From the NCBI GenBank assembly GCA_023266235.1, contig JAHFRL010000010.1, positions 5,555 to 69,554 on the forward strand: 64,000 bases of DNA, read 5' to 3'. Positions 11,321 through 62,769 of the stretch are shown here, one piece after another. A program made the translations under genes and the position numbers. Source of the stretch: Betaproteobacteria bacterium. GTDB lineage: Bacteria; Pseudomonadota; Gammaproteobacteria; Burkholderiales; SG8-41. The notes under the pieces were generated by a model. That model saw nothing but the letters and a program-made list of their open reading frames with translations. It did not search any database and was not told the origin of the DNA. Positions within the stretch are counted from its first letter, which is position 1, and each line of letters opens with the position of its first letter.

Positions 11321-11351
11321 ACCCTTCACCCTTCACCCTTCACCCTTCACC
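11321..11351 (-). repeat. Tandem heptamer repeat, 4 x GTGAAGG on the minus strand, starting 4 nt after the ahcY stop
   Basis: The plus strand reads acccttcacccttcacccttcacccttcacc. Single arm; no complementary arm seen before the metF start. Confidence 0.9.
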
Positions 11352-11354
11352 GCA

Positions 11355-12782
11355 TCAATACCGGTAGTGCTCGGACTTGTACGGGCCGTCAACCGGCACG
11401 TTCAGGTAATCGCACTGCCTTTCGTTCAGCACTGTCAGTTCGACGCCAAGCTTCTTGAGGTGCAGGCGCGCGACTTTTTCGTCGAGCTGCTTGGGCAGCA
11501 CGTAGACCTTGTTCCCGTATTGGCCGCTCTTGGTGTAAAGCTCGATCTGCGCGAGGGTCTGGTTGGTGAACGAGCTCGACATCACGAACGACGGGTGCCC
11601 GGTGCCGCAGCCGAGGTTCACCAGGCGACCTTCGGCGAGCACGATCAGCCGCTTGCCGTCCGGAAACACCACGTGGTCGACCTGCGGCTTGATGTTTTCC
11701 CACCGGTAAGCTTTAAGCGCGGCGATCTCGATTTCGGAGTCGAAGTGGCCGATGTTGCACACGATCGCATTGTGCTTCATGCGCTTCATGTGCGCGTGGT
11801 TGATCACGCCCACGTTGCCGGTCGCGGTCACGAAAATGTCGGCCTTGTCGGCCGCGTAATCCATGGTCACCACGCGGAAACCTTCCATCGCCGCCTGCAA
11901 TGCGCAGATCGGGTCGATCTCGGTCACCCACACCTGCGCGGAAAGCGCGCGCAGGGCCTCGGCGCTGCCCTTGCCGACATCGCCATAGCCGCACACGAGC
12001 GCTACCTTGCCCGCCACCATCACGTCAGTCGCGCGCTTGATCGCATCGACCAGCGACTCGCGGCAACCGTAGAGGTTGTCGAACTTGGACTTGGTCACGG
12101 AATCATTGACATTGATCGCCGGGAACGGCAGGCGCCCCTCTTTTTCCATCTGGTACAAGCGGTGCACGCCGGTCGTGGTTTCCTCGGTGACGCCCTTGAT
12201 GTTGGCCTGGATTCTCGAGTAGAAGCCGGGTTTTTCCTTGAGTCGCTTCTTGATCGCGGCGAACAGCACGCGCTCTTCCTCGTTGCTGCCCGCGGGCGGG
12301 ACCGTGGCGTCTTTCTCATGCTTCGCGCCCAGCGTGACGAGCAGCGTGGCATCGCCGCCATCGTCGAGGATCATGTTGGGCGTGCCGCCCTCATTTTCGT
12401 TACCGGGCCATTCGAGGATCTTGTGGGTGTATTCCCAGTAATCCACGAGCGTTTCGCCCTTGTAGGCGAATACCGGGATGCCGCGCGCCGCGATCGCCGC
12501 CGCGGCGTGATCCTGCGTCGAGAATATATTGCACGACGCCCAGCGAATGTCGGCGCCGAGTTCGGCCAGCGTCTCGATCAGCACTGCGGTCTGGATCGTC
12601 ATGTGCAGTGATCCGGCGATGCGCGCTCCTTGCAGCGGCTGCCTGCCTTTGAATTCCTCGCGCAGCGCCATCAGGCCGGGCATTTCGGTCTCGGCAATGG
12701 CGATTTCCTTGCGGCCGAAGTCGGCCTGCCTGATGTCCGCGACCTTGTAGTCGGCGGATTTTGCTTGAGTTGCGGCGTTCAT
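11355..12782 (-). CDS. ahcY: Adenosylhomocysteinase
   Basis: [37 protein letters not shown] (NAD site), C-terminal YKSEHYRY. Start moved to ATG 12782, preceded by AAAGGAGG. Confidence 0.95.
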
Positions 12783-12816
12783 CACGCCCTCCTTTCCCGA
12801 TAGCAGAAAAAAGTTC

Positions 12817-12894
12817 GTGAGCGCCGTTGCAAGTGTGGACACCCCGAGCCTGGCGGCCGCGCGGGAAGGCGGCCGTTGCAACGCTCCTCGGGGA
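12817..12894 (-). promoter_or_regulatory. SAH riboswitch (S-adenosylhomocysteine-responsive, RF01057 type) in the ahcY leader
   Basis: The minus strand reads CCCCGAGGAGCGUUGCAACGGCCGC..GCGGCCGCCAGGCUCGGGGUGUCCACACUUGCAACGGCGCUCAC. This carries the conserved GAGGAGCG, AGGCUCGG and CAACGGCGCUCAC blocks plus a variable hairpin, in the canonical position upstream of ahcY. Confidence 0.85.
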
Positions 12895-13076
12895 GGGGCG
12901 CTATTGTAACGCAACCGCCAATAGTTGTGGCAAACGGCTATACCACGTCACATAAACTGTTGGCTCAGGTGCCCTGTTGCTGCCCCGGCGTCCCCGAAAA
13001 TCTGCGATGATTCAATCTCGGAGGGGATTTGATGCTAGGTCACGCGCGGCAAATACATTGGCAACCAGGCTGGAAA

Positions 13077-13622
13077 CTACTTTTGTCCCAACCCTCGAAG
13101 TATCCAACGAAAAAAATTGCGAAGGCCGGTAAGAAGCTTGCGCCGCGGTAGCGGAGTTCCTGGCTTAATGCACCAGCCAGCTTCTGTCGCAAGCTTTGCG
13201 AGAGATTCTTTAAACCGCTTGAACGCACTAGCGCCTGTAAGCGGGGGTTGAGTAATTATTAGTGCGTGAGCCAAGTTCGCCTTGATGGCAAGAGAAATGT
13301 CGCCATTGACAGGATCTGGCATAACGTCAACCACATGTGACGAGGGGGCGGCAGAGTTATTCTGTTGGACAATTGGTCCAACAGCGCGAATCTTGGCTGC
13401 GTTCAGCTCGACAATTCCATCCGTCGTGGTAATCCGCGAGCGATGCGGATCAAAATTCTGCAGTTTCGCTCGATCCACTGACGGCTGCCTGCTGCGATCA
13501 TTGAATGCGGTACTTGAAAATCTAAACTGCCCTCCCTCGGTCGAATACAACGGGGAAGCTAAGTTGGGGATACGACGATAGAGTTGCTCATCGTCCTGCA
13601 CTCGATCCTGCCCATCGGTCAT
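13077..13622 (-). CDS. Hypothetical protein (181 aa), last gene of the low-GC operon
   Basis: ATGA overlap with the upstream gene. No family recognised. Notable segments are DEQLYRRIP, FRFSSTAFNDRSRQPSVDRAKL and NLAHALII. Confidence 0.6.
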   Translation of the reverse strand: MTDGQDRVQDDEQLYRRIPNLASPLYSTEGGQFRFSSTAFNDRSRQPSVDRAKLQNFDPHRSRITTTDGIVELNAAKIRAVGPIVQQNNSAAPSSHVVDVMPDPVNGDISLAIKANLAHALIITQPPLTGASAFKRFKESLAKLATEAGWCIKPGTPLPRRKLLTGLRNFFRWILRGLGQK

Positions 13623-14116
13623 GCAAAAAGCCAGCCCCAGAGCGGCGTTATCCCATTACTTGGGATTACCCCGTCTTCCATTTCGCTCACGATATGAGGC
13701 CCCCAACTCTTGAGGTAGGTCAGCTCGTGCGGTCCAGCATATATGGTGAGCTTGCGGTTCCCATGCCACCATTCGAAGACAATCTCACCGTCCTCGCTTG
13801 AACTAATGTGAGGAGCTTGCCAACCTCCGGCCGCCTCGCATTGCAGGTAAGCTTCTTCAAGAAACTGTCGCGCGTTCTCGATTGCCAACGTGTCTGGGTG
13901 AACGCTACCGTAGCCATCCCAGTCATCCGGCAACAACGCAATCTGATCGAGTTGGTCGTGCAACGGGAATAACATTGGTTCCTTGGCGGCCCTACTCAAG
14001 TCACCAGATATAGCGGCGCTCGGAGGGGCAAAATGACGTACTTTGACAGTAGGTCGTGATCCGAACGACGGCCGTAAATAATCGCGCCAGCCAATTTCAG
14101 CAGCTATGGTACTCAT
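13619..14116 (-). CDS. Hypothetical protein (165 aa), third gene of the low-GC operon
   Basis: ATGA overlaps on both sides. Contains LLPDDWDGYGSVHPDTLAIENARQFLEEA. No family recognised. Confidence 0.6.
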   Translation of the reverse strand: MSTIAAEIGWRDYLRPSFGSRPTVKVRHFAPPSAAISGDLSRAAKEPMLFPLHDQLDQIALLPDDWDGYGSVHPDTLAIENARQFLEEAYLQCEAAGGWQAPHISSSEDGEIVFEWWHGNRKLTIYAGPHELTYLKSWGPHIVSEMEDGVIPSNGITPLWGWLFA

Positions 14117-14868
14117 TGATCAATCAGCTCCCTTGTACGGTCGGTGATGCAAGCTTCGAAGATCTCATTCTTGCGATCCCGCAGTTTATCAAGAAATGCC
14201 CAAACTTCCGAATCTTGCCAAGTTTCAATACCGAGACGAAAAATGTCAATGTCAAAAATTATCGATATATGCCCAGGCTTCGCCGGTTCAACCAAGGCTT
14301 GGTTGAGTACAGCGACGCATTCAATATCCGGTTGTGGCATCTGAAGGTTCATTGCCATCCCCATTACATCTTGCTGTGGGAGTTGTTCCGGAATCTTTGG
14401 GTAAAGCGTGAAATAATCGTAAGGCTCTATCTTGGCCCCAGGTATATTTACGCGATTGATATAGCGTAGCGCGCATCGCGCTAATTTTACATCGCGGACA
14501 GAGGATCGATATCTCTCCCATAACGGTTGTGCTTCAGCTCGGAAAGTGGCCCAATCTGTATATGGGGCCATGTGGCTGTATGCAAAGCCGTCCCGCCTAA
14601 CTTGAAGGATGCGTGAATCGTCAACCTTAGATAGTCGATAACCGATGACACCTTGCGAGGACGTAAAGACCGCGTCTTCAGCTTGGTTCTGTGCTGCCAC
14701 ACCCATTTGCAACAGCCGCATGGGCGCCTGCTTCGGGAACTCCGGTTTGAAAGATTCTGCTAGCTTTTCAACCGCTGTCTTCCCAAATGATTCAGGCGGC
14801 TGTATTCGAATCTCGATTACCGCTTCGGTAATCGGCGCGCTCTTGTATCGCTTCGGGTTCGACGTCAC
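14113..14868 (-). CDS. TIGR04255-like family protein (function unknown)
   Basis: The N-terminus RYKSAPITEAVIEIRIQPPESF...FKPEFPKQ and the ~250-aa length match my recollection of TIGR04255 family proteins. The assignment needs an HMM check. Confidence 0.6.
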   Translation of the reverse strand: MTSNPKRYKSAPITEAVIEIRIQPPESFGKTAVEKLAESFKPEFPKQAPMRLLQMGVAAQNQAEDAVFTSSQGVIGYRLSKVDDSRILQVRRDGFAYSHMAPYTDWATFRAEAQPLWERYRSSVRDVKLARCALRYINRVNIPGAKIEPYDYFTLYPKIPEQLPQQDVMGMAMNLQMPQPDIECVAVLNQALVEPAKPGHISIIFDIDIFRLGIETWQDSEVWAFLDKLRDRKNEIFEACITDRTRELIDQ

Positions 14869-14874
14869 GACCTG

Positions 14875-15414
14875 TTAATTTGCAAATTGACGCCGGTAGG
14901 CAAGAACCTGCTTGGCGTTGCGCAGCGTCTTGGCAATCGCTTTGACGTCGATAAGATCGTTTTCGTCGGCGGACTTCCACGCCGCGTCGTGGCTCTTATC
15001 CGTCAGGCGCTTGAAACTGAGCTTGCCGTTTTCCTTGATCGATGAGTCGAGGCATTCGCGCTGAGATGCGCTGAGCAGATCGAGGTTTGCCGGGCGTAAC
15101 GGTCGCACGCGGCGACCTTCTTCGACGCTCAAAGACTGCGCAACCAACTCGTAGAACTGCGAAGGAATGAGCGGTTCGAGGCGACCGGCGCCGGCCTTCA
15201 TGAGATTGTAAATCGCGCTTGGCACGGGCCCGTGCCGCATGGCCACGTAGTTGTCCCCCGACAACAGGCTGCCATATCGCGATAGATGTTCGCGGTCGGC
15301 GAAGTATAGCACTTTGGATACGGAGTGCAGCGTCGGGTAGCGCAATCGGCTGGCGACGTACAGCACCAGTTCCAACGCGCGTTCAGGGTCGAAGCGGATC
15401 GGGGTGACTGTCAT
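14875..15414 (-). CDS. Panacea (DUF4065, SocA/PanA-type) domain protein, putative antitoxin
   Basis: SKVLYFADREHLSRYGSLLSGDNYVAMRHGPVPSAIYNLMK and SASQRECLDSSIKENGKLSFKRLTDKSHDAAWKSA match the DUF4065 pattern. ATG 15414 is preferred over the track's TTG at 15429. Confidence 0.7.
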   Translation of the reverse strand: MTVTPIRFDPERALELVLYVASRLRYPTLHSVSKVLYFADREHLSRYGSLLSGDNYVAMRHGPVPSAIYNLMKAGAGRLEPLIPSQFYELVAQSLSVEEGRRVRPLRPANLDLLSASQRECLDSSIKENGKLSFKRLTDKSHDAAWKSADENDLIDVKAIAKTLRNAKQVLAYRRQFAN

Positions 15415-15434
15415 GGAGAAGCACCGCAAGACGA

Positions 15435-16819: not shown

Positions 16820-17710
16820 ATGCGGCGCGCGCGGTTACGCCTGATGCGCGTCGGGCTCGCCATCATCTGGGCGCTGCATTTTTTGCCGCTCGCGTTGTTG
16901 GCGCGAGTCGGCGCGGCACTCGGCACGCTGCTGTACGCGCTGGCGCGCGCGCGGCGCCGTGTCGTGCTGGCCAATCTCAGGCTGTGCTTTCCGGAGTTGA
17001 GCGACGAAGCACGCCGGCAGCTTGCACGGAAGCACTTCCGGGCTTTCGGCCGCAGCCTGCTCGAGCACGGCATCCTGTGGTGGGGCTCGAAAGAGCGGGT
17101 GCATGCGCTGGTGCAGGTCGAAGGGCTCGAACATTGGCGCGCCTGCGCAGACCGGCCCGTGATATTGCTGGCGCCGCATTTCATTGGCCTCGACATGGGC
17201 GGCATTCGGCTCGCCGCGGACTACCGCCTGAATTCGGTCTACAGCCGGCAGAAAAGCGCCGCGGCCGATGCGATCCTGATCCACGGCCGCACGCGCTTCG
17301 GACAGACTACGCTGTTCGCGCGCCAGGACGGCATCCGGCCGATGATCAAATCGCTCAAAAACGGCGAGCCGTTTTATTACCTGCCCGACATGGATCTCGG
17401 CGCGCGCGACTCGGTGTTCGCGCCGTTTTTCGGCGTGCCGGCGGCGACCATCACCGGCTTGTCGCGCATCGCCGAGCTGGCGGGTGCGGTCGTGGTGCCG
17501 TGCATCACGCGCCAGCTGCCGGGCAGCGCCGGCTACGTGGTGCGGCTGTATCCGGCGTGGACTGATTTTCCGAGCGGTGACCCTGGCGCCGACGCCCGGC
17601 ACATGAACGCCTTCATCGAAGAGCGCGTGCGCGAGATGCCTGAGCAGTATTACTGGCTGCACAAGCGCTTCAAGACGCGGCCGGCGGGAGAGCCAAGCCC
17701 CTATGCGTGA
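16820..17710 (+). CDS. lpxL: Lipid A biosynthesis (Kdo2-lipid IVA) lauroyl/acyl transferase, LpxL/HtrB family
   Basis: HX4D motif in [31 protein letters not shown]. Length is typical. Confidence 0.7.
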
Positions 17711-17736
17711 GGCGGGAGGCGGGAGGCGGGAGGCGG
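17707..17736 (+). repeat. Tandem heptamer repeat, 4 x GGAGGCG, beginning on the lpxL TGA stop
   Basis: gtgaggcgggaggcgggaggcgggaggcgg. It contains Shine-Dalgarno-like GGAGG copies ahead of the next gene. Confidence 0.9.
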
Positions 17737-17744
17737 CAACCACG

Positions 17745-18239
17745 GTGCGGGTCGCGCCGCTGGCGGTGGCGGACATCGAGCGCCTGATCGCGCTCGCCGG
17801 CGAGATATGGCGCCGCCATTATGCAGACATCATCAGCGCGGCGCAGATAGAATACATGCTCAAGCAGCGCTATACCGCCGAGGCATTGCGCGAAGAACTG
17901 CAGCGCAAAGACTTGTGGTGGGACCAGTTGCTCGTTGACGCCAGGATGGCGGGATTCGCTTCTTACTTCCTGACTCGAAACGCGGGTGAAATGAAGCTCG
18001 ACAAACTCTACGTGCATCACGACCATCAGCGCAAGGGCTACGGCGGCATGCTGCTGGATCGGGCGCTTACCATCGCGCGCGCTTACGGCTGTGACACGCT
18101 CATGCTTGCGGTCAACAAGCACAACCGCAATGCGATCGCTGCTTACGAAAAGCATGGTTTTTGGATCGCCGAATCGGTGGTGACGGATATCGGCGGCGGT
18201 TTCGTGATGGATGACTACGTGATGATGAAGGATGTTTGA
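17745..18239 (+). CDS. GNAT family N-acetyltransferase
   Basis: HHDHQRKGYGGMLLDRAL (acetyl-CoA motif), NRNAIAAYEKHGF. GTG 17745 is preferred. The track start ATG 17703 would translate the heptamer repeat. Confidence 0.7.
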   Translation: MRVAPLAVADIERLIALAGEIWRRHYADIISAAQIEYMLKQRYTAEALREELQRKDLWWDQLLVDARMAGFASYFLTRNAGEMKLDKLYVHHDHQRKGYGGMLLDRALTIARAYGCDTLMLAVNKHNRNAIAAYEKHGFWIAESVVTDIGGGFVMDDYVMMKDV

Positions 18240-19115: not shown

Positions 19116-19756
19116 CACCTGATGCGGTCGCGAGTTACCTCAAGCAGCACCCCGAATTTTTCGAAGAGCACGCCGATTTCCTGGCGACGATCTTCATCCC
19201 GCACCCGCACGGCGGGCGTGCGATTTCGATCAGCGAGCGCCAGATACTCACGCTGCGCGAGAAGGGCAAGCAGCTCGAAGGCAAGCTGCGCGAGCTGATC
19301 GAATTCGGCGAGGATAACGACGCGATCGGCGAGAAGCTGCACCGGCTCACGCTGGCGCTGGTTGCGGCGCGCGACGCTGAGGCCGTGATCGAGGCGTTGT
19401 ACTTCAACCTGCGCGAGGATTTCGCGGTGCCGCATACCGTGTTGCGGCTGTGGAAGGAGGGCGCGCATCCGCGGCTGGCCGAGTTCGACGCCGTCAGCAC
19501 CGAGGCGCGCGAGTTTGCCGAGAGCCTGGCGAATCCCTATTGCAGCGCGCACGCGATGGTCGATACCGGAGCATGGTTCGGTGAGAACGCCGCGCACTTG
19601 CGCTCGTTTGCTTATGTCGCGCTGAAGAGCGGCCAGACTTTCGGGCTGCTCGCCATGGCGAGCGAAGACGCACAGCGCTTCTACCCCGAGATGGGCACGC
19701 TCTATCTGAAACGCCTGGGCGAGCTTACCGCGGCGGCGTTGTTGAGGTACTTGTGA
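19112..19756 (+). CDS. DUF484 family protein
   Basis: [20 protein letters not shown]-terminus, in the classical dapF-DUF484-xerC context. ATGA overlap with dapF. Confidence 0.8.
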
Positions 19757-19781
19757 AGGGTGAAGGGTGAAGGGTGAATGG
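19753..19781 (+). repeat. Tandem heptamer repeat, about 3.5 x GTGAAGG, starting on the DUF484 TGA stop and covering the candidate xerC GTG start
   Basis: gtgaagggtgaagggtgaagggtgaatgg. Confidence 0.9.
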
Positions 19782-20699
19782 ACTCGGGCAAAAATACCCG
19801 CTGTAAAGAATGCGGGCGCAGCGAAGCTGCTCGAGAACTACCTCGGCCATCTCGCCAACGAGCGGCGCTTAAGCCGGCACACCGTCCTCAACTACCAGCG
19901 CGATATCGCGGCGCTGCTCGAGCTTGCCGCCGACACGCCGCTTGCCAAGCTGCAGCTCCACAATATACGGCGCTTCGTCGCGCAATTGCACGCACGCGGG
20001 CTCGACGGCAGGAGCCTCGCGCGCATGCTGTCGGCGTGGCGCGGATTTTACCGCTACCTCGCACGCGATCACGGCTACACCAGCAACCCCTGCATCGGGC
20101 TGCGCGCGCCGAAATCCAAGAAGACCCTGCCGCAGGCACTGTCGCCCGATGAGGCCGGACGGCTGATGGACCTCCCGGACGGCGCTGCGCTCGCGACCCG
20201 CGACAAGGCGATCTTCGAGCTGTTCTACTCTTCGGGATTGCGTCTGTCGGAGCTCACAAGTCTCGCGCCGACCGACATCAATTTCAGCGATGCGACGGTG
20301 CGCGTCACGGGCAAGGGGGCCAAGACGCGCGTGGTGCCGGTCGGCAGTCACGCGCTCAACGCGGTGCAGGACTGGCTCAGGCAGCGCGCGCTCTTGATCA
20401 AAGCCGGCGGCGATGCGCTGTTCGTCAACCGCAACGGCACGCGGCTGACGCCGCGCGCGATCCAGTACCGTTTCAAGCAATGGGCGTTGAAGCTGGGGCT
20501 CGATAGCGACGTGCATCCGCACATGCTGCGCCATTCGTTCGCGTCGCACGTGCTGCAATCGAGCGGCGACCTGCGCGCGGTGCAGGAGATGCTCGGCCAT
20601 GCGAGCATTTCGACGACGCAGGTTTATACCCATCTCGATTTTCAGTACCTCGCGAAGGTTTACGACGCCGCGCATCCGCGCGCGAGGAAAAAAAGCTGA
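19767..20699 (+). CDS. xerC: Tyrosine recombinase XerC (chromosome dimer resolution)
   Basis: LSRHTVLNYQRDI, GLRLSEL, HMLRHSFASHVLQSSGDLRAVQEMLGHASISTTQVYTH (R..HxxR..Y). Context is dapF-DUF484. The start is uncertain: GTG 19767 lies inside the repeat. Confidence 0.8.
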   Translation: MKGEWTRAKIPAVKNAGAAKLLENYLGHLANERRLSRHTVLNYQRDIAALLELAADTPLAKLQLHNIRRFVAQLHARGLDGRSLARMLSAWRGFYRYLARDHGYTSNPCIGLRAPKSKKTLPQALSPDEAGRLMDLPDGAALATRDKAIFELFYSSGLRLSELTSLAPTDINFSDATVRVTGKGAKTRVVPVGSHALNAVQDWLRQRALLIKAGGDALFVNRNGTRLTPRAIQYRFKQWALKLGLDSDVHPHMLRHSFASHVLQSSGDLRAVQEMLGHASISTTQVYTHLDFQYLAKVYDAAHPRARKKS

Positions 20700-20769
20700 G
20701 CCGCAAAGGACGCGGAGGACGCCAAGGAAAATCGAGAGGCGAAAAACGAGGAACGAGCGTTTGCTTTGA

Positions 20770-20807
20770 CCATCCACCATTCACCATTCACCGTTTACTG
20801 TTCACTC
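20770..20807. repeat. Tandem heptamers of TCACC/TTCAC type (complement of GGTGAAT family)
   Basis: ccatccaccattcaccattcaccgtttactgttcactc, in the xerC-rlmI spacer. Confidence 0.8.
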
Positions 20808-20883
20808 GCTTTTCTTGGCGTCTTGGCGGTTCAATTTGATCTTATCGGCGTTAATCGGCGCTCATCGGCGGCTCAATGTGCTA

Positions 20884-20912
20884 GTGAAGGGTGAAGAGTG
20901 AAGGGTGAAGGG
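20884..20912 (+). repeat. Tandem heptamer repeat, 4 x GTGAAGG/GTGAAGA, overlapping the rlmI GTG start
   Basis: gtgaagggtgaagagtgaagggtgaaggg. Confidence 0.9.
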
Positions 20913-22103
20913 AAGGCGCTGTCGCGTCTTATATTGAAGCCCGGCCGCGAGAAATCGCTCAAGCGCCGCCATCCGTGGGTGTTTTCGGGCGCGGTCGCGA
21001 AATTCAGCGGCACGCCGGACGCGGGCGACACCATCGAGGTACACAGCGCCGACGGGGAATTTCTGGCGGTGGCCGCGTGCAACCCGCAATCGCAAATCGT
21101 CGCGCGCGTGTGGGCTTGGGAGAAGCGGGAAATCGACGCCGCGTTTTTCCGGGACCGCATCGGACGCGCGGTCGCGCTGCGCAGCCAGCTGCTTCCGGAG
21201 TGTGAATCGGTGCGTCTGGTGCACGCGGAGTCGGACGGGCTGCCGGGCGTGGTGATCGACCGTTACGGCGACATCGTCGTGGTGCAATTGTCGAGCGCGG
21301 GTGCGATGCGCTGGCGTGACGCGGTCGCGGATGCCGTCGAAGCGGTGGTCAAGCCGACAACTGTTTTCGAGCGTTCAGATGCCGACGTGCTTGCGCTCGA
21401 AGGCCAGCAGCCGCGCGTGGGCTTGCTGCGCGGCGCTGCGCCGCCGGCGCAGGTAGTGGTAAACGAAGCGGGTGCAATGTTCGAAGTCGACGTGCCGCAT
21501 GGCCATAAGACGGGTTTTTATCTCGACCAGCGCGATAACCGGCTGCGGCTGCGTGAGCTTGCCGCCAAGCGCGAAATGCTCGACTGTTTTGCCTACACCG
21601 GCGGTTTCACCGTGAACGCGCTCATCGGCGGCGCCGCGACCGTGACCGCGCTCGACAGCTCGGGTTCGGCGCTCGAATTGCTTGCGCGCAACGTCGCGCT
21701 CAATCGGCTGCCGCAGGCCGAATGCATCGAAGGCGACGTGTTCCAGTTATTGCGCAAGATGCGAGACCAGGCGCGCAGTTTCGATCTGATCGTGCTCGAC
21801 CCGCCGAAATTCGCGCCGACCGCGGCGCACGCCGAGAAAGCGTCGCGCGCCTACAAGGACATCAACCTGCTCGCGTTCAAACTGCTGCGGCCGGGCGGGC
21901 TGCTGTTGACGTTCTCATGCTCGGGCGGCGTGTCGCGCGAGCTGTTCCAGAAAATCGTCGCCGGGGCCGCGCTCGACGCCGGCGTCGAGGCGCAGATCGT
22001 GGAGCAGTTGAGCGCCGGCGCCGACCATCCGGTCGCGCTCAATTTCCCCGAGGGCGAGTATCTGAAGGGGCTGATTTGCCGGGTGGCCGGTGCGTTGGGG
22101 TGA
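20898..22103 (+). CDS. rlmI: 23S rRNA (cytosine1962-C5)-methyltransferase RlmI-like, PUA + class I SAM methyltransferase
   Basis: RLILKPGREKSLKRRHPWVFSGAV (matches the E. coli RlmI N-terminus as I recall it), DCFAYTGGF, VLDPPKF. Confidence 0.75.
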   Translation: MKGEGKALSRLILKPGREKSLKRRHPWVFSGAVAKFSGTPDAGDTIEVHSADGEFLAVAACNPQSQIVARVWAWEKREIDAAFFRDRIGRAVALRSQLLPECESVRLVHAESDGLPGVVIDRYGDIVVVQLSSAGAMRWRDAVADAVEAVVKPTTVFERSDADVLALEGQQPRVGLLRGAAPPAQVVVNEAGAMFEVDVPHGHKTGFYLDQRDNRLRLRELAAKREMLDCFAYTGGFTVNALIGGAATVTALDSSGSALELLARNVALNRLPQAECIEGDVFQLLRKMRDQARSFDLIVLDPPKFAPTAAHAEKASRAYKDINLLAFKLLRPGGLLLTFSCSGGVSRELFQKIVAGAALDAGVEAQIVEQLSAGADHPVALNFPEGEYLKGLICRVAGALG

Positions 22104-22193
22104 ATAGTGAATAGGAAGTGGTAAATAGGGAATAGGCAACAGCAGTACGCATCGCGCGCCTGACCATTTACTATTTCCCATTCCTCATTTACC
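22099..22193. repeat. Inverted heptamer-repeat hairpin between convergent rlmI and yidD; the arms cover both stop codons
   Basis: The left arm is ggtgaatagtgaataggaagtggtaaatagggaatagg. The right arm is ccatttactatttcccattcctcatttacc. The spacer is 27 nt. Confidence 0.85.
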
Positions 22194-27196: not shown

Positions 27197-27733
27197 ATGG
27201 AGCAATTTCACGGCACGACCATTATTTCGGCGCGGCGCGGCAAGCGCGTTGCGCTCGGCGGCGACGGCCAGGTCACGCTCGGCAACGTCGTGCTCAAAGC
27301 GAGCGCGCGCAAGGTGCGGCGTTTGTACGAGGACAAGATACTCGCCGGCTTTGCCGGCGGCACGGCTGACGCGTTCACGCTGTTCGAGCGCTTCGAGGCC
27401 AAGCTCGAGAAGCACCAGGGCAACCTGCTGCGCTCGGCGGTCGAGCTCGCCAAGGATTGGCGCACCGACCGCATCCTGCGCCGGCTCGAGGCGATGCTGG
27501 TGGTGTGCGACAGCGAGAGCTCGCTGATCATCTCCGGCAACGGCGACGTGCTCGAGCCCGAGCAGGGGCTGGTCGCGATCGGCAGCGGCGGGCCGTATGC
27601 GCAGGCCGCGGCGCGCGCGCTGCTCGAAAATACCGTCATGCCGCCCGAGGAAATCGTGAAGAAGGCGCTGGCCATCGCCGGCGACCTGTGCATCTATACC
27701 AATCAGCAGCATGTGATTGAAATACTTGAGTGA
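27197..27733 (+). CDS. hslV: ATP-dependent protease subunit HslV
   Basis: [37 protein letters not shown]. Confidence 0.95.
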
Positions 27734-27815
27734 AGGGTGAATGCGTGAAGGGTGAGGGGCGCGGTAGATCAGCGTCCCGGATTTTTCCCTTCACCCTTGA
27801 CCCTTCCCCCTTCAC
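27730..27815 (+). repeat. Inverted heptamer-repeat hairpin inside the hslV-hslU operon, starting on the hslV TGA
   Basis: The left arm is gtgaagggtgaatgcgtgaagggtgagggg. The right arm is cccttcacccttgacccttcccccttcac. Confidence 0.9.
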
Positions 27816-27826
27816 GAGTTGACGCC

Positions 27827-29152: not shown

Positions 29153-29154
29153 CG

Positions 29155-29223
29155 GAAATGATGAGTGATGAGTGACGGCGCAGCAGTCTGCGCTGACTTT
29201 TCACCGCTCACTGCTCACCGCAC
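29155..29223. repeat. Inverted heptamer-type hairpin after hslU (GATGAGT units)
   Basis: The left arm is gaaatgatgagtgatgagtgacgg. The inner small hairpin is gcgcagcagtctgcgc. The right arm is ttttcaccgctcactgctcaccgcac. Confidence 0.8.
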
Positions 29224-29277
29224 TAAGACCGTCGGCTTGATCCCCAGCGCCTGACCGATGCGCTCGGCGGCCTGCCG
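29215..29277 (-). pseudogene. Duplicated 3' end of rlpA (last ~20 codons plus stop), orphan fragment
   Basis: 59/63 nt are identical to 30828-30890. On the minus strand it translates as ..RQAAERIGQALGIKPTVLVR*, versus ..RQIAERIGQALGIKPMVLVR* in rlpA. Confidence 0.85.
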
Positions 29278-29280
29278 CGC

Positions 29281-30165
29281 TTATGCGGCGGTCAACCCGT
29301 AGTCGCTCGGGGATTCCTCGATGCAGTAGCCATTACGGCCGCGTGCCTTGACCTCGTACATCGCGCGGTCGGCGCGCTCCAACAGCAAGGCTGCATCATG
29401 ACCGTCTCGCGGGTAGAAGCTCGCGCCCACGCTCAGCGTAATCCGGAACTCGTGGCCGCGCACTACGTAAAGCTCGCCGCACGTCGTAAGCAGTTTGGAC
29501 GTAATGCATGCGGCCGACCGCTGATCTGTGACGCCATCGAGAATGGCGACGAATTCATCGCCGCCCCAACGCGCCACGGTGTCGCTTGCCCGTACCGATT
29601 GCACGAGGCGCGCAGCAATTTCGCGCAACAGTTCATCACCGGTCTCGTGCCCGAAGGTGTCGTTAATCTGCTTGAAGTGATCGATGTCGATGTAGAGCAA
29701 AGCAAACGCACTGCGGTTGCGCTGCCCGACCGCCAGGGCACGTGCCAGCCGGTCGTCGAACAGGTTGCGGTTCGGCAGCCCGGTGAGGTTGTCGTGAAAC
29801 GCCAGCCTGGAGAGCCTCTCCAGCTGCCGGTCGTCGCCAAGGTGTTGAAAAAAGTGGACGTAATGGGTTACCACACCGGCGTCGTCGCATAACGGATAGA
29901 CCGCGTACAAGACATCGAGCATGTTTCCGCTGCTGCTGTGAATGCGCAGTTCGCGGTACTTGGCCTCGCCAGCGTCCTGCCCGCCCGGTCCTACCCGGAA
30001 CTCCAGGAGGTTGAAGGGCAGTTCGACCGGTTCACCGCTGCGCACCCCCAGCATCCTGCATAGATACGCGTTGGCGTGTTCGAGCGTGCCGTCCAGTCGC
30101 GCGATCGCCATCCCTACCGCGAAACGTTCGATGTTTCTGAGAAGGTCTTGTTTATGCCAAGCCAT
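29281..30165 (-). CDS. Diguanylate cyclase (GGDEF) with N-terminal PAS-like sensor region
   Basis: DNLTGLPNRNLFDDRL, LLYIDIDHFKQINDTFGHETGDELL, RWGGDEFVAIL (GGDEF), RADRAMYEVKARGRN. Confidence 0.9.
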   Translation of the reverse strand: MAWHKQDLLRNIERFAVGMAIARLDGTLEHANAYLCRMLGVRSGEPVELPFNLLEFRVGPGGQDAGEAKYRELRIHSSSGNMLDVLYAVYPLCDDAGVVTHYVHFFQHLGDDRQLERLSRLAFHDNLTGLPNRNLFDDRLARALAVGQRNRSAFALLYIDIDHFKQINDTFGHETGDELLREIAARLVQSVRASDTVARWGGDEFVAILDGVTDQRSAACITSKLLTTCGELYVVRGHEFRITLSVGASFYPRDGHDAALLLERADRAMYEVKARGRNGYCIEESPSDYGLTAA

Positions 30166-30716: not shown

Positions 30717-30773
30717 CGCGAGACAGTCGTACCGCCGGTCGCAAAGGGGCAGGGATCTCGCGCATTGCGTGTT

Positions 30774-30836
30774 GTAAGTGGTAAGCGTTCAGCGATCGGT
30801 GAGACTCGGCCGCTTACCGTTCATCGTTCACCGCAC
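30774..30836. repeat. Inverted heptamer-type hairpin (GTAAGYG units) abutting the rlpA stop
   Basis: The left arm is gtaagtggtaagcg. The right arm is cgcttaccgttcatcgttcaccgcac. Confidence 0.75.
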
Positions 30837-36305: not shown

Positions 36306-36310
36306 CAGTC

Positions 36311-36392
36311 GTGAGGCGAGAGGCGGGAGGCGGGAGGCGATTCAAAGCGGTGGTTTTTCGCCTCACTCCTCACGCTTCACTCCTCACTCCGC
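36311..36392 (-). repeat. Inverted heptamer-repeat hairpin between mreB and mreC
   Basis: The plus-strand arms are gtgaggcgagaggcgggaggcgggaggcga and cgcctcactcctcacgcttcactcctcactccgc. On the minus strand the GGAGTGA units follow the mreB TGA. Confidence 0.9.
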
Positions 36393-37525: not shown

Positions 37526-37813
37526 ATGACGCTGACTCTGGACGATGTGAAACGCATCGCGCACCTTGCCCGCATCGAGATCGAGCCGCACGAGGCGGAG
37601 CAGGTGCTGGCACAGTTGACCGGGATCTTCCGGCTGATCGAGGAGATGCAGGCGGTCGGCACCGACGGCGTCGAGCCAATGGCGCATGCGCAGGACGTGA
37701 TGCTGCGACTGCGCGATGATGCGGTGACCGCAGCGGATCAGCGCGCGCTGTTCCAGTCGATTGCACCCCAGGTCGAATCCGGCCTTTACCTGGTGCCCAA
37801 GGTTATTGAGTGA
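37526..37813 (+). CDS. gatC: Asp/Glu-tRNA(Asn/Gln) amidotransferase subunit C
   Basis: [17 protein letters not shown]...LYLVPKVIE, upstream of gatA and gatB. Confidence 0.9.
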
Positions 37814-37844
37814 GGGGTGAAGGGTGAAGAGTGAAGGGTTGGGG
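37810..37844 (+). repeat. Tandem heptamer repeat (GTGAGGG/GTGAAGG/GTGAAGA) starting on the gatC TGA
   Basis: gtgaggggtgaagggtgaagagtgaagggttgggg. There is only a weak complementary arm (cccctttgaccc...) before gatA. Confidence 0.85.
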
Positions 37845-37885
37845 CCTCAACGGTTTCCCCTTTGACCCGTTAATGCCTCAATCCA

Positions 37886-39352: not shown

Positions 39353-39433
39353 AAAGTGAAACGTGATGCCCCCTCCCCAGCCCTCCCCCTGTCGGGGGAG
39401 GGTGCGTTTCACATTTGACATTTCACGTTTCAC
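39348..39433 (+). repeat. Inverted heptamer-repeat hairpin (GTGAAAN units) with an inner CCCTCCCCC/GGGGGAGGG hairpin, between gatA and gatB
   Basis: The left arm is ggtgaaaagtgaaacgtgatgc. The inner hairpin is ccctccccctgtcgggggaggg. The right arm is gcgtttcacatttgacatttcacgtttcac. Confidence 0.9.
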
Positions 39434-39443
39434 GGAAATTAAC

Positions 39444-43101: not shown

Positions 43102-43105
43102 CGGC

Positions 43106-43234
43106 GGTGAATAGTGAATGGTGAATAGTGAACGGTAAAACGCAGTCCGTACCGCCTTTCCTCCGGGAGAGAGTGGGACCGGATTGCCCGATTCTTCATT
43201 TCCCATTTCCCATTTCCCATTTCCCATTTACTCG
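43106..43234 (+). repeat. Inverted heptamer-repeat element (GGTGAAT/AGTGAAT units versus 5 x CATTTCC) after xthA
   Basis: The left arm is ggtgaatagtgaatggtgaatagtgaacggtaaaacg. The right arm is ttcatttcccatttcccatttcccatttcccatttactcg. The spacer is about 52 nt. Confidence 0.9.
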
Positions 43235-44366: not shown

Positions 44367-44432
44367 AAGGAGAGGCGAGAGGCGGAAATACCGAAAGCCT
44401 CGATCTCGCAGAACGCTTCGTGTTTCCGGATT

Positions 44433-48432: not shown

Positions 48433-48466
48433 AAAAAAACCCGGCGAGCTTGCGCTTTACCGGGTC
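48433..48466 (-). terminator. Intrinsic terminator / attenuator hairpin immediately upstream of the metX ATG
   Basis: The minus strand reads ACCCGG-UAAAGCGCAAGCUCG-CCGGGU followed by UUUUUUAUUU, then AUG. Confidence 0.55.
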
Positions 48467-48472
48467 ATTTTT

Positions 48473-48523
48473 CTCTTTAGCCGGATTTATAAGGCGCCCG
48501 CAAGCTGAAATCAAATCGGCGCA
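48473..48523 (-). promoter_or_regulatory. Candidate SAM-responsive leader (SAM-II-like pseudoknot motif) upstream of metX
   Basis: The minus strand reads GCGCCGAUUUGAUUUCAGCUUGCGGGCGCCUUAUAAAUCCGGCUAAAGAG. A GCGCC/GGCGC stem is present, and loop GAUUU is complementary to tail AAAUC. The motif is shared with the metH leader. Confidence 0.45.
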
Positions 48524-48602
48524 CTGCAACTGGAGCAAACGTTACCGTGTCCCGCCCGGGCTTGTCAAATCGGGAGCGCGGGCGGGGCCCCCGCCGCGTG
48601 GC

Positions 48603-50554: not shown

Positions 50555-50655
50555 GATCGATACAGGATCGAGGTATCAGGATTGAGGATTGAGCCGAGAG
50601 AACGTGAGGACACAAAACTCAATCCTCGATCCTCGATCCTCAATCCTAAATCCTG
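50555..50655 (-). repeat. Inverted heptamer-repeat hairpin (GGATTGA/GGATCGA units) between HPr and ptsI
   Basis: The plus-strand arms are gatcgatacaggatcgaggtatcaggattgaggattgag and tcaatcctcgatcctcgatcctcaatcctaaatcctg. Confidence 0.9.
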
Positions 50656-50657
50656 CT

Positions 50658-57547: not shown

Positions 57548-57787
57548 ATGGCCAATCAACAATTGCTCGATGAATTAAGCGCCAAGCTCAAAGAGGTGTT
57601 CGCCAACAGCCCGGCGCGCGATATCGAAAAAAACCTGCGCGCAATGCTGGCGGCGACATTCGCCCGCCTCGATCTGGTCACGCGCCAGGAATTCGAGATC
57701 CAGAGCGACGTGCTCGCGCGCACGCGTGAAAAGCTCGTACAGCTCGAAGCGAAGCTCGCCGAGCTGGAAAAAAAGCGTGAGACGTAA
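57548..57787 (+). CDS. ubiK: UbiK/YqiC (BMFP) family accessory factor
   Basis: A 79-aa coiled-coil protein with LDLVTRQEFEIQSDVLARTREKLVQLEAKLAELE. Confidence 0.6.
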   Translation: MANQQLLDELSAKLKEVFANSPARDIEKNLRAMLAATFARLDLVTRQEFEIQSDVLARTREKLVQLEAKLAELEKKRET

Positions 57788-57816
57788 GGCGGGAGGCGAG
57801 AAGCGAGAGGCGAAGG
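57786..57816 (+). repeat. Tandem heptamer-type repeat (GGAGGCG/AGAAGCG/AGAGGCG) starting on the ubiK TAA
   Basis: aaggcgggaggcgagaagcgagaggcgaagg. Confidence 0.8.
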
Positions 57817-60776: not shown

Positions 60777-61804
60777 ACGAACTATCGGGCTGGGCCGAGG
60801 AAAAGCGCGCCGCGTATCTGTATCGCGTGGTCGCCGAGTGCGAAGCCGGCTCGCCGCGCGAGAAGCTGTTCCTCGGGCTCGCCGCGGAAGCGGAAAGCCA
60901 GGCTGCAATCTGGGAAAAAAAAGCGCGCGCCGCGGGCGCGGCCGTGCCGCAGGGCTATGTTCCCGATGTGCGTGCGCGCGTCGTCGCAGGGCTGGTGCGG
61001 CGCCACGGGCCGCGGCGCCTGCGCGGCATGCTGGCAGCGATGAAAGTGCGCGGCATGTCGGTGTACGCGAGCGGCGGCTCGGGGCGGGTGTTCCCGCATC
61101 ATCTCGACGACGTCGGCCACCACCGCGGATTGTCCGGCGGCGGCAATCTGCGCGCGGCGGTTTTCGGCGTGAACGATGGACTGATCTCGAACGCGAGCCT
61201 GATCATGGGCGTCGCCGGCGCGAGCGCCGACAGCGCAATGATCGTGCTGACCGGCGTCGCGGGGCTGGTGGCCGGCGCGTTCTCGATGGCGGCCGGCGAA
61301 TACGTGTCGGTGCGTTCGCAGCGCGAAATGTACGAATACCAGATCGGACTCGAGCGCGATGAGCTTGCCGAATATCCCGAAGAAGAAGCGCGCGAGCTCA
61401 CGCTGATCTACGAGGCGCGCGGCATCGCGCCTGACGAAGCGCGGCGCCTGGCGCAGACAATCATCACCGATCCCGAGCAGGCGCTCGACACGCTCGCGCG
61501 CGAGGAACTGGGCCTGAATCCCGAGGACCTCGGCTCGCCGTGGGGGGCCGCAACGTTCTCATTCATGTCGTTCGCCGCCGGCAGCGCGATACCGCTGCTG
61601 CCGTTTTTGCTCGGCCTGGGTAGCGCGAGCTTGCCAACAGCGATCGCGCTGACCGCAGCCGCGCTGTTCGCGGTCGGCGCGACGCTATCGCTGTTCACCG
61701 GGCGTAGCGCGCTTGCCAGCGGCCTGCGCATGCTCGCCATCGGCGCCGCCGCGGGCGGCGTGACTTACCTGGTGGGAAAAATGCTGGGTATCAGCCTGGC
61801 GTAA
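60773..61804 (+). CDS. VIT1/CCC1-family iron/manganese transporter with N-terminal ferritin/rubrerythrin-like domain
   Basis: EKRAAYLYRVVAE...LAAEAESQAAIW at the N-terminus. The VIT1 core reads LRAAVFGVNDGLISNASLIMGVAG and EYVSVRSQRE. ATGA overlap with the bcr-like gene. Confidence 0.75.
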   Translation: MNELSGWAEEKRAAYLYRVVAECEAGSPREKLFLGLAAEAESQAAIWEKKARAAGAAVPQGYVPDVRARVVAGLVRRHGPRRLRGMLAAMKVRGMSVYASGGSGRVFPHHLDDVGHHRGLSGGGNLRAAVFGVNDGLISNASLIMGVAGASADSAMIVLTGVAGLVAGAFSMAAGEYVSVRSQREMYEYQIGLERDELAEYPEEEARELTLIYEARGIAPDEARRLAQTIITDPEQALDTLAREELGLNPEDLGSPWGAATFSFMSFAAGSAIPLLPFLLGLGSASLPTAIALTAAALFAVGATLSLFTGRSALASGLRMLAIGAAAGGVTYLVGKMLGISLA

Positions 61805-61810
61805 CAAGCG

Positions 61811-61886
61811 GGATTGAGGATCGAGGATTGAGGATCGAGGAAAAAGCGAAACGCTCTGCTTCTACTCAATCCTCGATCCTCAATCC
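61811..61886 (+). repeat. GGATTGA/GGATCGA inverted heptamer element, copy 1 (upstream of the DUF1847 gene)
   Basis: The left arm is ggattgaggatcgaggattgaggatcgagg, the spacer is aaaaagcgaaacgctctgcttctac, and the right arm is tcaatcctcgatcctcaatcc. Confidence 0.9.
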
Positions 61887-62002
61887 TGCCTTTAACCTCG
61901 CTCCCGGCGGGCAACCCCAGTGGCAGTTTGATCTAGATCAGAGTTCCTCGTCATGGAACGCCTAGACTGATGTGAACCGCTGCATCGATGGGAGGAGTAA
62001 TC

Positions 62003-62707
62003 ATGAAATACGAAGATCCCGCGTGTGCCTATTGTCCGCCGACCGTCCGCGCCTGCCGCCAAGGTGAAGCTGAAGAGCGCGGCCCCGGCTTTTGCCCGAC
62101 CAAGGTCGACCCCGAAACCCAGCACGTCGCGCGCGCGCTGTATGACGACCCGGAAACCCGCAAGGTCTCGCGCGAATCCGCGCTGGTCGAGTCCGAAGGT
62201 TACTGCAAGTGGACGCGGGTCGAAGAGATCGTCCAGTTCGCCAGGCGCATGGGCTACAAAAAAATCGGCATCGCGAACTGCATCAGCTTCGTCGATCACG
62301 CATACGTGCTCTCCGGCATCCTCGAGAGCCACGGCTTCGAGGTCGTGTCGGTCGCCTGCAAGAACGACAGCATCCCGAAGGAAGAGCTGGGGATCGCCGA
62401 TCACGAGAAAATCCGTCCCGGCCAGTTCGAGGCGCTCTGCAATCCGGTGAGCCAGGCCGAGATGCTGAACGCCCACGGCTGCGAGTTCAATGTCGTGCTG
62501 GGGCTATGCATCGGACACGACAGCCTGTTCTTCAAGCATGCCAAGGGACTGACGACCGTGCTGGTCGCCAAAGACCGCGTGCTCGGCCACAACCCGGTGG
62601 CGGCGCTGCAGCTGGCAGACACCTATTACAGCCGCTTGTGGGGACCGCTCAAGCCGGCGAAACCGCGGAAGCTTCCGCCCGCGGGCCGGCGTGACAAGCA
62701 GGATTGA
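62003..62707 (+). CDS. DUF1847 family Cys-rich (metal-binding) protein
   Basis: MKYEDPACAYCPPTVRACRQGE...GFCPTKV, ANCISF, VACKNDS and LGLCIGHDSLF match my recollection of DUF1847. GGGAGGAG lies upstream of ATG 62003. Confidence 0.7.
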   Translation: MKYEDPACAYCPPTVRACRQGEAEERGPGFCPTKVDPETQHVARALYDDPETRKVSRESALVESEGYCKWTRVEEIVQFARRMGYKKIGIANCISFVDHAYVLSGILESHGFEVVSVACKNDSIPKEELGIADHEKIRPGQFEALCNPVSQAEMLNAHGCEFNVVLGLCIGHDSLFFKHAKGLTTVLVAKDRVLGHNPVAALQLADTYYSRLWGPLKPAKPRKLPPAGRRDKQD

Positions 62708-62769
62708 GGATTGAGGATCGAGGATTGAGGAAAAAGCGAAACGCGCTGCTTCTACTCAATCCTCAATCC
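62701..62769 (+). repeat. GGATTGA/GGATCGA inverted heptamer element, copy 2 (covers the DUF1847 TGA)
   Basis: The left arm is ggattgaggattgaggatcgaggattgagg. The spacer aaaaagcgaaacgcgctgcttctac is 24/25 identical to copy 1. The right arm is tcaatcctcaatcc. Confidence 0.9.

Follow-up and report, generated by a model that had tools for sequence, protein, structure and literature searches.

The stretch analysed here (the window) comprises 64,000 nucleotides of contig JAHFRL010000010.1 (assembly GCA_023266235.1, positions 5,555 to 69,554), and its subject of interest is a set of intergenic elements built from tandem 7-nt units, most of them paired as inverted arms. The window has a G+C content of 63% and a coding share of 92.3%. 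Metagenome assemblies in ENA (ERZ27279937 and others) match it with identities above 99.5%. No species representative has an HslU more than 82% identical to that of the window, and the top matches are from betaproteobacterial metagenome-assembled genomes (MAGs; Nitrosomonadaceae, Sulfuritalea, Rhodocyclales), which makes the source an uncultured betaproteobacterium without close sequenced relatives, those available being at best 77–82% identical. Gene content was taken from database gene calls and Pfam scans, which bear out the names assigned by an initial reading of the letters alone (the sequence-only reading): hslVU, gatCAB, mreBCD, rodA–rlpA, HPr–ptsI, the xthA-like gene and VIT1–DUF1847. 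The 18 loci at which that reading placed heptamer elements are as follows, with unit 1 denoting the first unit of an array and z the folding score relative to shuffled sequences.

11318–11351, minus strand: single purine arm, 4.4 copies of GGTGAAG on the minus strand; begins 3 nt past the ahcY stop codon (11355–11357), with the metF start 37 nt further downstream; followed by AAAATCGGG, a loop-edge motif found also at 27777 and 43187.
17705–17736, plus strand: single purine arm, 4.6 copies of GGGAGGC, with a GNAT gene downstream; unit 1 is altered to GTGAGGC and provides the TGA stop of the lipid A acyltransferase gene.
19753–19778, plus strand: single purine arm, 3.7 copies of GTGAAGG; unit 1 carries the TGA that ends the DUF484 gene, and unit 3 the GTG predicted to start xerC.
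20695–20835, plus strand: composite long hairpin in the xerC–rlmI spacer (z −2.3); the purine-rich 5′ side, including three copies of CGCAAAGGA, runs from 2 nt past the xerC stop, and the 3′ side holds a pyrimidine heptamer array at 20769–20806 (CCATTCA) and two copies of TCTTGGCG.
20884–20912, plus strand: single purine arm, 4.1 copies of GTGAAGG, which overlap the GTG predicted to start the rlmI-like methyltransferase gene; the sole locus not adjoining a stop codon.
22097–22186, no strand assigned: degenerate inverted pair of the GGTGAAT / ATTTACC type between the convergent rlmI and yidD genes (z −2.7); unit 1 holds the rlmI TGA, and the purine arm of the other strand starts 0–1 nt past the yidD TAA.
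27728–27818, plus strand: inverted pair of four GTGAAGG and four CCCTTCA copies filling the hslV–hslU spacer (z −4.8), with an inner GC hairpin and then ATTTTT; unit 1 holds the hslV TGA, and 12 nt separate the end of the stem from the hslU ATG.
29153–29226, no strand assigned: inverted pair of the GATGAGT / CACCGCT type around an inner hairpin and then TTTT (z −2.7); starts 6 nt past the hslU TAA; its pyrimidine arm lies inside an 80-nt direct repeat shared with 30816–30895.
30770–30832, no strand assigned: weak inverted pair GTAAGYG / CGTTCAY (z −0.6, not significant); the minus-strand purine arm starts 3 nt past the rlpA TAG.
31812–31900, minus strand: inverted pair of four GAGGCGA and 4.7 TCTCCTC copies filling the rodA–rlpA spacer (z −2.9); L205, a syntenic relative, retains the element, its unit family unchanged but its loop different.
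36307–36392, minus strand: inverted pair of four GGAGGCG and four CCTCACT copies filling the mreB–mreC spacer (z −4.8); the stem base lies 1 nt past the mreB TGA and 0 nt from the mreC ATG.
37808–37872, plus strand: purine arm of 4.3 GTGARGG copies with a weak pyrimidine partner between gatC and gatA (z −1.7); unit 1 holds the gatC TGA.
39346–39436, plus strand: inverted pair of three GTGAAAN and four TTTCACR copies between gatA and gatB, enclosing an inner GC hairpin of 10 bp (z −3.6); unit 1 holds the gatA TGA.
43104–43232, plus strand: inverted pair of four GGTGAAT/AGTGAAT and 4.7 CATTTCC copies (z −4.0); starts 5 nt past the TAA that ends the xthA-like gene, with 3 nt left between its stem and the ATG of a D-serine-dehydratase-like gene.
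50555–50657, minus strand: inverted pair of the GGATTGA/GGATCGA family filling the HPr–ptsI spacer (z −5.2); its 5′ terminal motif (GGCG..TAA.AGCAGGATT) is common to 61798 and 62688.
57785–57815, plus strand: single purine arm of the GGAGGCG/GAGAAGC type; unit 1 reads TAAGGCG and holds the TAA of a 79-aa BMFP/UbiK-like gene.
61798–61905, plus strand: inverted pair of 4.4 GGATTGA/GGATCGA and 3.3 CTCAATC copies with conserved flanks, between VIT1 and DUF1847 (z −10.5).
62688–62788, no strand assigned: inverted pair of 4.6 GGATTGA and 2.3 CTCAATC copies between the convergent DUF1847 and rhodanese genes (z −8.0); unit 1 holds the DUF1847 TGA, and the 3′ terminal motif (GTTAAGAGCAGG on the minus strand) includes the rhodanese TAA.

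The heptamer elements were confirmed as a real and strongly non-random feature of the window. Arrays were detected with Tandem Repeats Finder and by a separate lag-7 scan (score of at least 10), with 20 approximately dinucleotide-matched shuffles as the chance baseline for the scan. Tandem Repeats Finder returned period-7 arrays at essentially every coordinate of the sequence-only reading, and the unit sequences are as it described them. The lag-7 scan found 20 arrays (3.1 per 10 kb) against 0.25 expected from the shuffles, and stricter thresholds left 15 and 12 arrays against none in the shuffles. Other periods from 4 to 13 gave 0–4 arrays each and period 15 gave four; period 14, twice 7, gave 14. 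The arrays occupy 775 bases, 712 of them intergenic and 63 within coding sequence, at gene edges only. Two of the loci are less distinct than the others: that at 30774 was undetected by Tandem Repeats Finder, and that at 37810 has a clear array in its first arm only. An additional two-unit array at 44370–44384, absent from the earlier list, was considered as a further element and rejected, its folding being not above chance.

The typical element comprises a purine-rich (R) arm of about four units, a loop of 20–50 nt and a pyrimidine-rich (Y) arm of about four units. The units fall into the families GTGAAGG, GGTGAAT/AGTGAAT, GGAGGCG/GAGGCGA, GGATTGA/GGATCGA, GTGAAAN and GATGAGT, with additional GGAGTGA and GGAGAGA units on opposing arms. 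Twelve loci are inverted pairs with 5–7 of 7 positions complementary between arms, and ten of the twelve fold at z −2.7 to −10.5 relative to shuffles, in agreement with the long imperfect hairpins that had been proposed; the loci at 11321, 17707, 19753, 20884 and 57786 are single arms. Within the loop, an inner GC hairpin followed by four or five T residues stands just ahead of the Y arm at 27730 and 29155, and the motif CCSGATTTT recurs at the loop edge at 11312, 27777 and 43187; apart from this, loops show no relation to one another in the window or across phyla. The array at 20770 proved to be a pyrimidine array forming the 3′ arm of the larger purine-to-pyrimidine hairpin at 20695–20835, the 5′ arm of which is built of 9-mers. 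Tandem repeats in this xerC–rlmI spacer (20702–20870) have periods of 9 (CGCAAAGGA, three copies), 8 (TCTTGGCG, two copies) and 10 (ATCGGCGCTA, 2.7 copies), so the repeat tendency there is not strictly 7-nt.

We analysed where the elements stand relative to genes. As the sequence-only reading had claimed, the first arm lies on or near the upstream stop codon: at 17 of the 18 loci the arm starts 0–7 nt past a stop codon or includes it. The stop codon is inside unit 1 at eight loci (17707, 19753, 22099, 27730, 37810, 39348, 57786 and 62701), and in the GGAGGCG family, the units of which contain no stop, unit 1 is altered to GTGAGGC (17707) or TAAGGCG (57786) and thereby supplies one. At the convergent pairs at 22099 and 62701, each gene ends against a purine arm on its own strand. 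Elements occupy 13 of 49 co-directional junctions, five of seven convergent junctions (the fifth through the weak 30774 locus) and none of eight divergent junctions, which upholds gene 3′ ends and intra-operon junctions as their sites. The two element-free convergent junctions are only 4–6 nt long. Divergent junctions hold 20% of the non-coding DNA; with 18 loci placed randomly over non-coding DNA, none would lie there with a chance of 0.8^18, or about 0.02. Half of the co-directional spacers of at least 60 nt contain an element. At seven operon junctions the predicted long stem starts −3 to +5 nt from the stop codon and ends 0–15 nt before the next start, so the element occupies the entire spacer.

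Genes downstream of these tight hairpins (starts at 27827, about 31800, 36305, 37886, about 39441, 43239 and 50554) lack a Shine-Dalgarno core 4-mer within 20 nt of the start in seven of seven cases, compared with 16 of 53 other genes that have one (p of about 0.05–0.08). Ribosome-binding sites are also rare beside the TAACTGA repeats of Beggiatoaceae (PMC4679880), which the absence at all seven window genes echoes. Two regulatory roles for the arms were tried and rejected. Purine arms are poor candidates for Shine-Dalgarno mimics, with duplex energies against the 16S 3′ tail no better than those of composition-matched permutations (quantiles of 0.03–0.40 for the window units). A −35-like TTGAC(C/A), created by one C-to-G variant unit in three pyrimidine arms (hslV–hslU at about 27797, gatC–gatA at about 37860 and gatA–gatB at about 39416), has no convincing −10 at proper spacing.

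The sequence-only reading further held that the purine-rich, TGA-containing arm comes first in the direction of transcription. For inverted pairs this order is a tautology, because the reverse complement of R–loop–Y is again R–loop–Y, and the claim can therefore be tested by unpaired arms only. These agree with it: all five window single arms adjoining a gene end have the purine strand as sense, as do unpaired arrays across genomes by 19 to 4. The cross-genome loci were fetched with two unrelated baits, GTGAAGG and the control GGAAGTG, each of which occurs in tandem in at least 120 genome contigs, giving about 240 loci from many phyla. The true regularity is a strand-symmetric polarity of R then Y, with Y then R almost never found. 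R-to-Y pairs outnumber Y-to-R pairs by 33:1 at GTGAAGG loci, 38:1 at GGAAGTG loci and 5:1 in the window, and the pooled ratio in other genomes is 71:2. Along the purine strand, 36–45% of arrays start within 10 nt of the stop codon of an open reading frame (ORF) of at least 120 aa, compared with 0–6% along the pyrimidine strand. Heptamer hairpins running from A-rich to T-rich arms in AT-rich genomes have the same polarity. Across many phyla and whatever the unit, a gene that ends at an array has the array's purine strand as its sense strand.

The stop codons within units do not account for this placement. It had been noted that TGA falls in all three frames over three repeats, which is true by arithmetic but is not the organising principle, as stop-free units behave alike. 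Units of the GGAGGCG/GAGGCGA family in the window contain no stop, and GGAAGTG, the reverse of GTGAAGG, has none in any frame on either strand; at GGAAGTG loci, a stop nevertheless adjoins 36% of arrays read along the purine strand and 6% read along the pyrimidine strand. Pooling stop-free-unit arrays from both locus sets and the window gives 55 that abut stops along the purine strand and 12 along the other. GTGAAGG, found in tandem in at least 120 contigs of many phyla, was considered as a universally special unit, and this was rejected because the stop-free GGAAGTG is equally widespread. Across genomes, units have a stop content of 58%, where composition alone predicts 47% (z of about 3.4). 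TGA-rich units would thus seem to follow from the position next to a stop, as a by-product that is tolerated or mildly favoured, rather than being the purpose of the repeat.

The two arms of an element behave independently. The sequence-only reading had both arms using one unit family and took this as a sign of concerted evolution, which the data do not support. Of 73 pairs, 52 have different consensus units in their two arms, and the lack of correlation between arm lengths (rho −0.04) rejects coupled expansion; copy number per arm has a mode of 4 and reaches 25. Within the window, the arm units differ at 36311 (GGAGGCG versus AGTGAGG) and at 31814 (GAGGCGA versus GGAGAGA), leaving one periodic mismatch per unit. 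Some elements are nonetheless related as wholes. Those at 61798–61905 and 62688–62788 are 92% identical copies, including the loop, the flanks and the stop-bearing 5′ flank, and a stop-bearing terminal motif, inverted at both ends, is common to 50555, 61798 and 62688.

Relatives place the elements in context. Eighty hslU neighbourhoods of relatives contain almost no period-7 arrays, and in most of them the hslV–hslU gap is 0–10 nt from stop to ATG, with HslV of the window ending on the same residue; the window element is thus placed exactly at the native stop. Six other lineages have heptamer hairpins with other units between hslV and hslU, including TAGGGAT/CCCCTAG in a Thiobacillus MAG and CTAGCCC, with TAG in place of TGA; those of L173 (the Thiobacillus MAG) and L191 lie about 120 nt upstream of the hslU start. 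In L205, a syntenic metagenome contig about 77% identical over 24 kb, the rodA–rlpA element retains its unit family around an unrelated loop and is the only clearly orthologous element found. The mreB–mreC and gatA–gatB spacers of L205 carry degenerate heptamer hairpins, and its hslV–hslU, gatC–gatA and HPr–ptsI spacers are non-heptamer hairpins of similar length. The relative L206 has GTGAGGC/CCTCACC hairpins at both gat junctions (928–1009 and 2475–2564). Structured spacers at these junctions are thus a feature of the clade, and the heptamer form is most developed in the lineage of the window.

One segment near hslU differs between the window and L205. An 80-nt direct repeat with 89% identity (29203–29282 and 30816–30895), made up of a heptamer pyrimidine arm and the last 55 nt of rlpA, flanks a 1.6-kb segment containing a GGDEF gene and a 137-aa ORF without a Pfam match. 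The segment is missing from L205, where hslU and rlpA are directly convergent, and it looks like an insertion into a formerly single element.

We propose, with about an even chance of being right, that the elements are hairpins of heptameric simple repeats built by slippage that persist only in transcribed 3′ or intercistronic spacers, their stems bracketing the stop codon and the next start. They would constitute a lineage-specific bloom of such simple-sequence-repeat hairpins with at least six unit families. The 7-nt period would come from replication slippage that favours 7-nt units, acting on each arm separately, as the uncorrelated lengths, the differing consensus units, the range of copy numbers and the many families indicate; because many unrelated units coexist, a sequence-specific reader is not expected behind the period. 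Besides slippage, whole elements would occasionally be copied to new sites, as the 92% identity of 61798–61905 and 62688–62788 and the terminal motif they share with 50555 suggest. Arrays would survive only in transcribed 3′ or intercistronic spacers and only with the purine arm first in the RNA, on either strand, and a strand-symmetric polarity fits a constraint on a transcript that can be read either way. A likely reason is that early exposure of a C-rich, G-poor arm would attract Rho or otherwise disturb expression; in the observed order the pyrimidine arm could pair once it is made. In the mRNA, a stem of about 25–30 bp would loop out the inserted spacer and keep the upstream stop beside the downstream start, so that translational coupling would be preserved as in relatives that have no spacer. 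The elements are probably transcribed with the upstream gene and stems of 25–30 bp would be of RNase III-substrate size; the stem may also act as a hairpin that protects 3′ ends or is processed in the manner of RNase III substrates.

Several points weigh against this proposal. RNA-level selection in the form of a G·U asymmetry was rejected, the sense RNA being more stable in six of eight window cases but in only 7 of 24 cross-genome cases (p 0.07), a signal that is in the wrong direction or not significant. Conservation of the rodA–rlpA arms could equally reflect homogenisation rather than selection, and the Shine-Dalgarno deficit downstream of hairpins (0/7 versus 16/53) is only marginal. Array lengths show no polymorphism between the window and the near-identical contigs L121, L122, L203 and L204, which differ from it by a handful of single-nucleotide polymorphisms only; slippage was thus not seen directly, although divergence there is tiny.

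The proposal has to be weighed against accounts in which the elements have no function or a different one. They could be function-less by-products of a neutral or mildly selfish, lineage-specific 7-nt slippage bias combined with fold-back copying, with purifying selection clearing arrays from coding DNA, promoters and the harmful orientation, and deletion bias pressing the remainder against stop codons. The sporadic, lineage-specific distribution, the lack of any spacer at the same junctions in most relatives, the independence of the two arms (rho −0.04), the missing wobble signal for sense RNA (7/24) and the experiments in Xanthomonas that found no function (PMC4692102) all fit such an origin. 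We consider it unlikely, though a serious contender, given that the rodA–rlpA arms keep their unit family at about 77% nucleotide identity around a randomised loop, that spacers of similar length in syntenic relatives still form hairpins even without heptamers, and that half of the co-directional spacers of 60 nt or more hold an element. The model first put forward, of hairpins that stabilise or terminate transcripts in the manner of REP/BIME elements and use TGA units to stop translation in three frames, we regard as improbable. Its REP-like placement stands, and it gains from the stop in unit 1 at eight loci, from the alteration of unit 1 to GTGAGGC or TAAGGCG in the stop-free GGAGGCG family and from the modest enrichment of stops on the purine strand of units. 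However, canonical Rho-independent terminators were rejected: no hairpin-plus-T-run site coincides with any element across 11–51 kb, terminator-like sites are not above shuffles, and a T-run follows the pyrimidine arm in 6 of 58 pairs across genomes. The stop-free GGAAGTG, moreover, is as widespread and has the same polarity and stop abutment (55 versus 12 for pooled stop-free units), the Xanthomonas GGGAATC unit contains no stop codon, and orientation with transcription is automatic for inverted pairs.

Non-autonomous mobile elements of MITE or REP type, inserted at or beside stop codons by a transposase encoded elsewhere in the genome, would explain why three GGATTGA-family copies share stop-bearing terminal motifs inverted at both ends and two of them a loop, why CCSGATTTT recurs at three loop edges, and why one junction can hold elements with different units in different lineages. 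Yet no consistent terminal inverted repeat or target-site duplication can be defined from the three copies, loops are otherwise unrelated, the remaining families have only units or the 9-nt loop-edge motif in common, arm copy numbers vary freely, a GTAG-type REP head is absent, and no transposase or RAYT match was found among the checked window genes (several ORFs have no Pfam match and a few were unscanned); mobility seems to us distinctly improbable. A role at the level of DNA, through G-quadruplexes or i-motifs or through arrays read by a DNA-binding protein, is suggested by the GTGAAGG and GGGAGGC arrays, which present four G3 tracts at 4-nt spacing (G3N4), and by a modal copy number of four. 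It is very improbable: these are the only families with a G3 tract, which GGATTGA, GGTGAAT, GTGAAAN and GATGAGT lack; A-rich to T-rich heptamer hairpins of AT-rich genomes have the same polarity; and at least six unrelated units within 64 kb sit poorly with one sequence-specific protein. Finally, gene-end elements of this kind could form a general class found across phyla, whose strict polarity would point to an unrecognised mechanism; we think this quite unlikely. Possible candidates would be U-tract-independent bidirectional transcript-end structures or Rho-insulating structures in terminator-poor genomes, or a dedicated activity that adds or reads repeats with a 7-nt footprint, such as proteins with a cold-shock domain on the pyrimidine arm or a polymerase that heals breaks by extending both 3′ ends with G-rich units. 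The cross-phylum sample establishes polarity (71:2), stop abutment (36–45% versus 0–6%) and independence from the unit, and not their cause.

To our knowledge, heptamer repeats have no accepted origin or function. They are the commonest long simple repeats of bacteria, known as such since the work of Mrazek in 2007 and in cyanobacteria since 1990. The STRR repeats of Calothrix and Anabaena, to which PMC4692102 and PMC4679880 refer, comprise several unrelated tandem 7-nt units in intergenic or intercistronic regions; they are lineage-specific, their role is not known, and they are mostly direct arrays, with other units and in another phylum. The window elements resemble them in having many unrelated heptamer units in one genome, in intergenic position and with sporadic phylogeny. 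REP/BIME elements are likewise extragenic hairpin repeats at gene 3′ ends and inside operons. They are transcribed in mRNA and shield the message upstream of them from 3′ exonucleases; according to Liang, Rudd and Deutscher in 2015, translation of a gene is lowered when a REP follows within about 15 nt of its stop codon. REPs are single imperfect palindromes of 20–40 nt with a GT[AG]G head, in one or a few families, and are mobilised by RAYT proteins. By contrast, the window arms are tandem heptamers of at least six families without a shared GTAG head, and no transposase or RAYT is present among window genes with Pfam hits.

A literature search for the window unit sequences returned nothing relevant. 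The suggestion that the family had not been described needs qualifying, as convergent heptamer pairs near the upstream ORF are known in Xanthomonas (PMC4692102), where function is open too. These GGGAATC repeats are the closest precedent, followed by the cyanobacterial STRR. They occur most often in about four copies, are 89–93% intergenic beside genes of no particular functional class, lie on average 28 nt from the upstream ORF and 160 nt from the downstream ORF, and are under-represented between divergent genes (PMC4692102). Each genome holds 70–75 convergent inverted pairs, with the G-rich strand first, that can form stem-loops; sister species have repeats of different length at the same junctions, and the repeats are transcribed (PMC4692102). 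No function was found for them despite experiments, and they have been framed as G-quadruplex formers, the G3N4 layout of the Xanthomonas and Nostoc repeats forming G-quadruplexes in vitro; few inverted pairs are reported in Nostoc (PMC4692102). The window elements match the heptameric simple repeats in their period of 7, their intergenic position near 3′ ends at the end of the upstream ORF, their roughly four tandem units and their convergent inverted pairs, and do not have G3 in each unit. Unlike Xanthomonas, with one dominant G3 unit that lacks a stop, the window has at least six families, most without G3 and most with TGA; its elements fill operon junctions from stop codon to start codon, and its host is an uncultured betaproteobacterium.

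Two further systems share single features. The TAACTGA repeat of marine Beggiatoaceae (MacGregor 2015) is an intergenic heptamer with stops in every frame, scattered over unrelated phyla, and occurs in 169 direct sets and one inverted set just upstream of start codons (PMC4679880). It is similar to the window elements in periodicity, intergenic site and sporadic phylogeny, and differs in being mainly direct, start-proximal and of a single unit. In the hmw 5′ untranslated region of Haemophilus influenzae, one arm of a long RNA hairpin is a tandem heptamer array and the other is purine-rich; the hairpin is an RNase III substrate experimentally, and transcription and processing influence change in repeat number (PMC12721329). 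The likeness is that of a heptamer array serving as the arm of a long hairpin, but hmw is a single 5′ locus with 11–63 copies and phase variation, its pyrimidine arm comes first and its second arm is not heptameric.

Any mechanism has to explain purine-first polarity, stop abutment irrespective of stops in the unit, and independent arms, and these general rules of polarity and stop abutment are the most useful output of the analysis. The window offers a compact natural example in which junctions that measure 0–10 nt in relatives provide clean test cases (hslV–hslU, gatCAB, mreB–mreC and HPr–ptsI). Should Rho avoidance or non-canonical termination underlie the polarity, the rule would matter for how transcripts are ended and insulated in GC-rich, terminator-poor bacteria. 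On the practical side, the arrays break short-read assemblies and mislead gene callers. Database calls run rlpA and the GNAT gene through heptamer arrays (31799–31901 and 17703–17748) and start xerC and rlmI on GTG codons within arrays (19767 and 20898); all four are probably mis-called starts caused by GTG-rich repeats. Near-identical contig L122 (45–270) differs from window 21820–22043 by 63 clustered mismatches and indels in the first 220 nt, inside the rlmI-like gene, which is either a contig-end assembly artefact or a strain variant.

Elsewhere in the window, a low-GC island (about 0.56) at 13077–15429, between ahcY and metK, contains a gene with a SocA/Panacea antitoxin domain and three ORFs without Pfam matches. 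No heptamer arrays lie within it, which is consistent with recently acquired DNA. Rfam covariance-model searches of the window returned only two matches, neither of them at an element. A SAH riboswitch (12812–12895, minus strand; 69.3 bits, E 1e-10) occupies the leader of the S-adenosylhomocysteine hydrolase gene. A sub-threshold match to the SAM-II (SAM_alpha) riboswitch (48456–48532, minus strand; 30.3 bits against a gathering score of 36, E 0.0066) spans the full model length, with the metX-like and metW genes directly downstream, and plausibly represents a genuine riboswitch.

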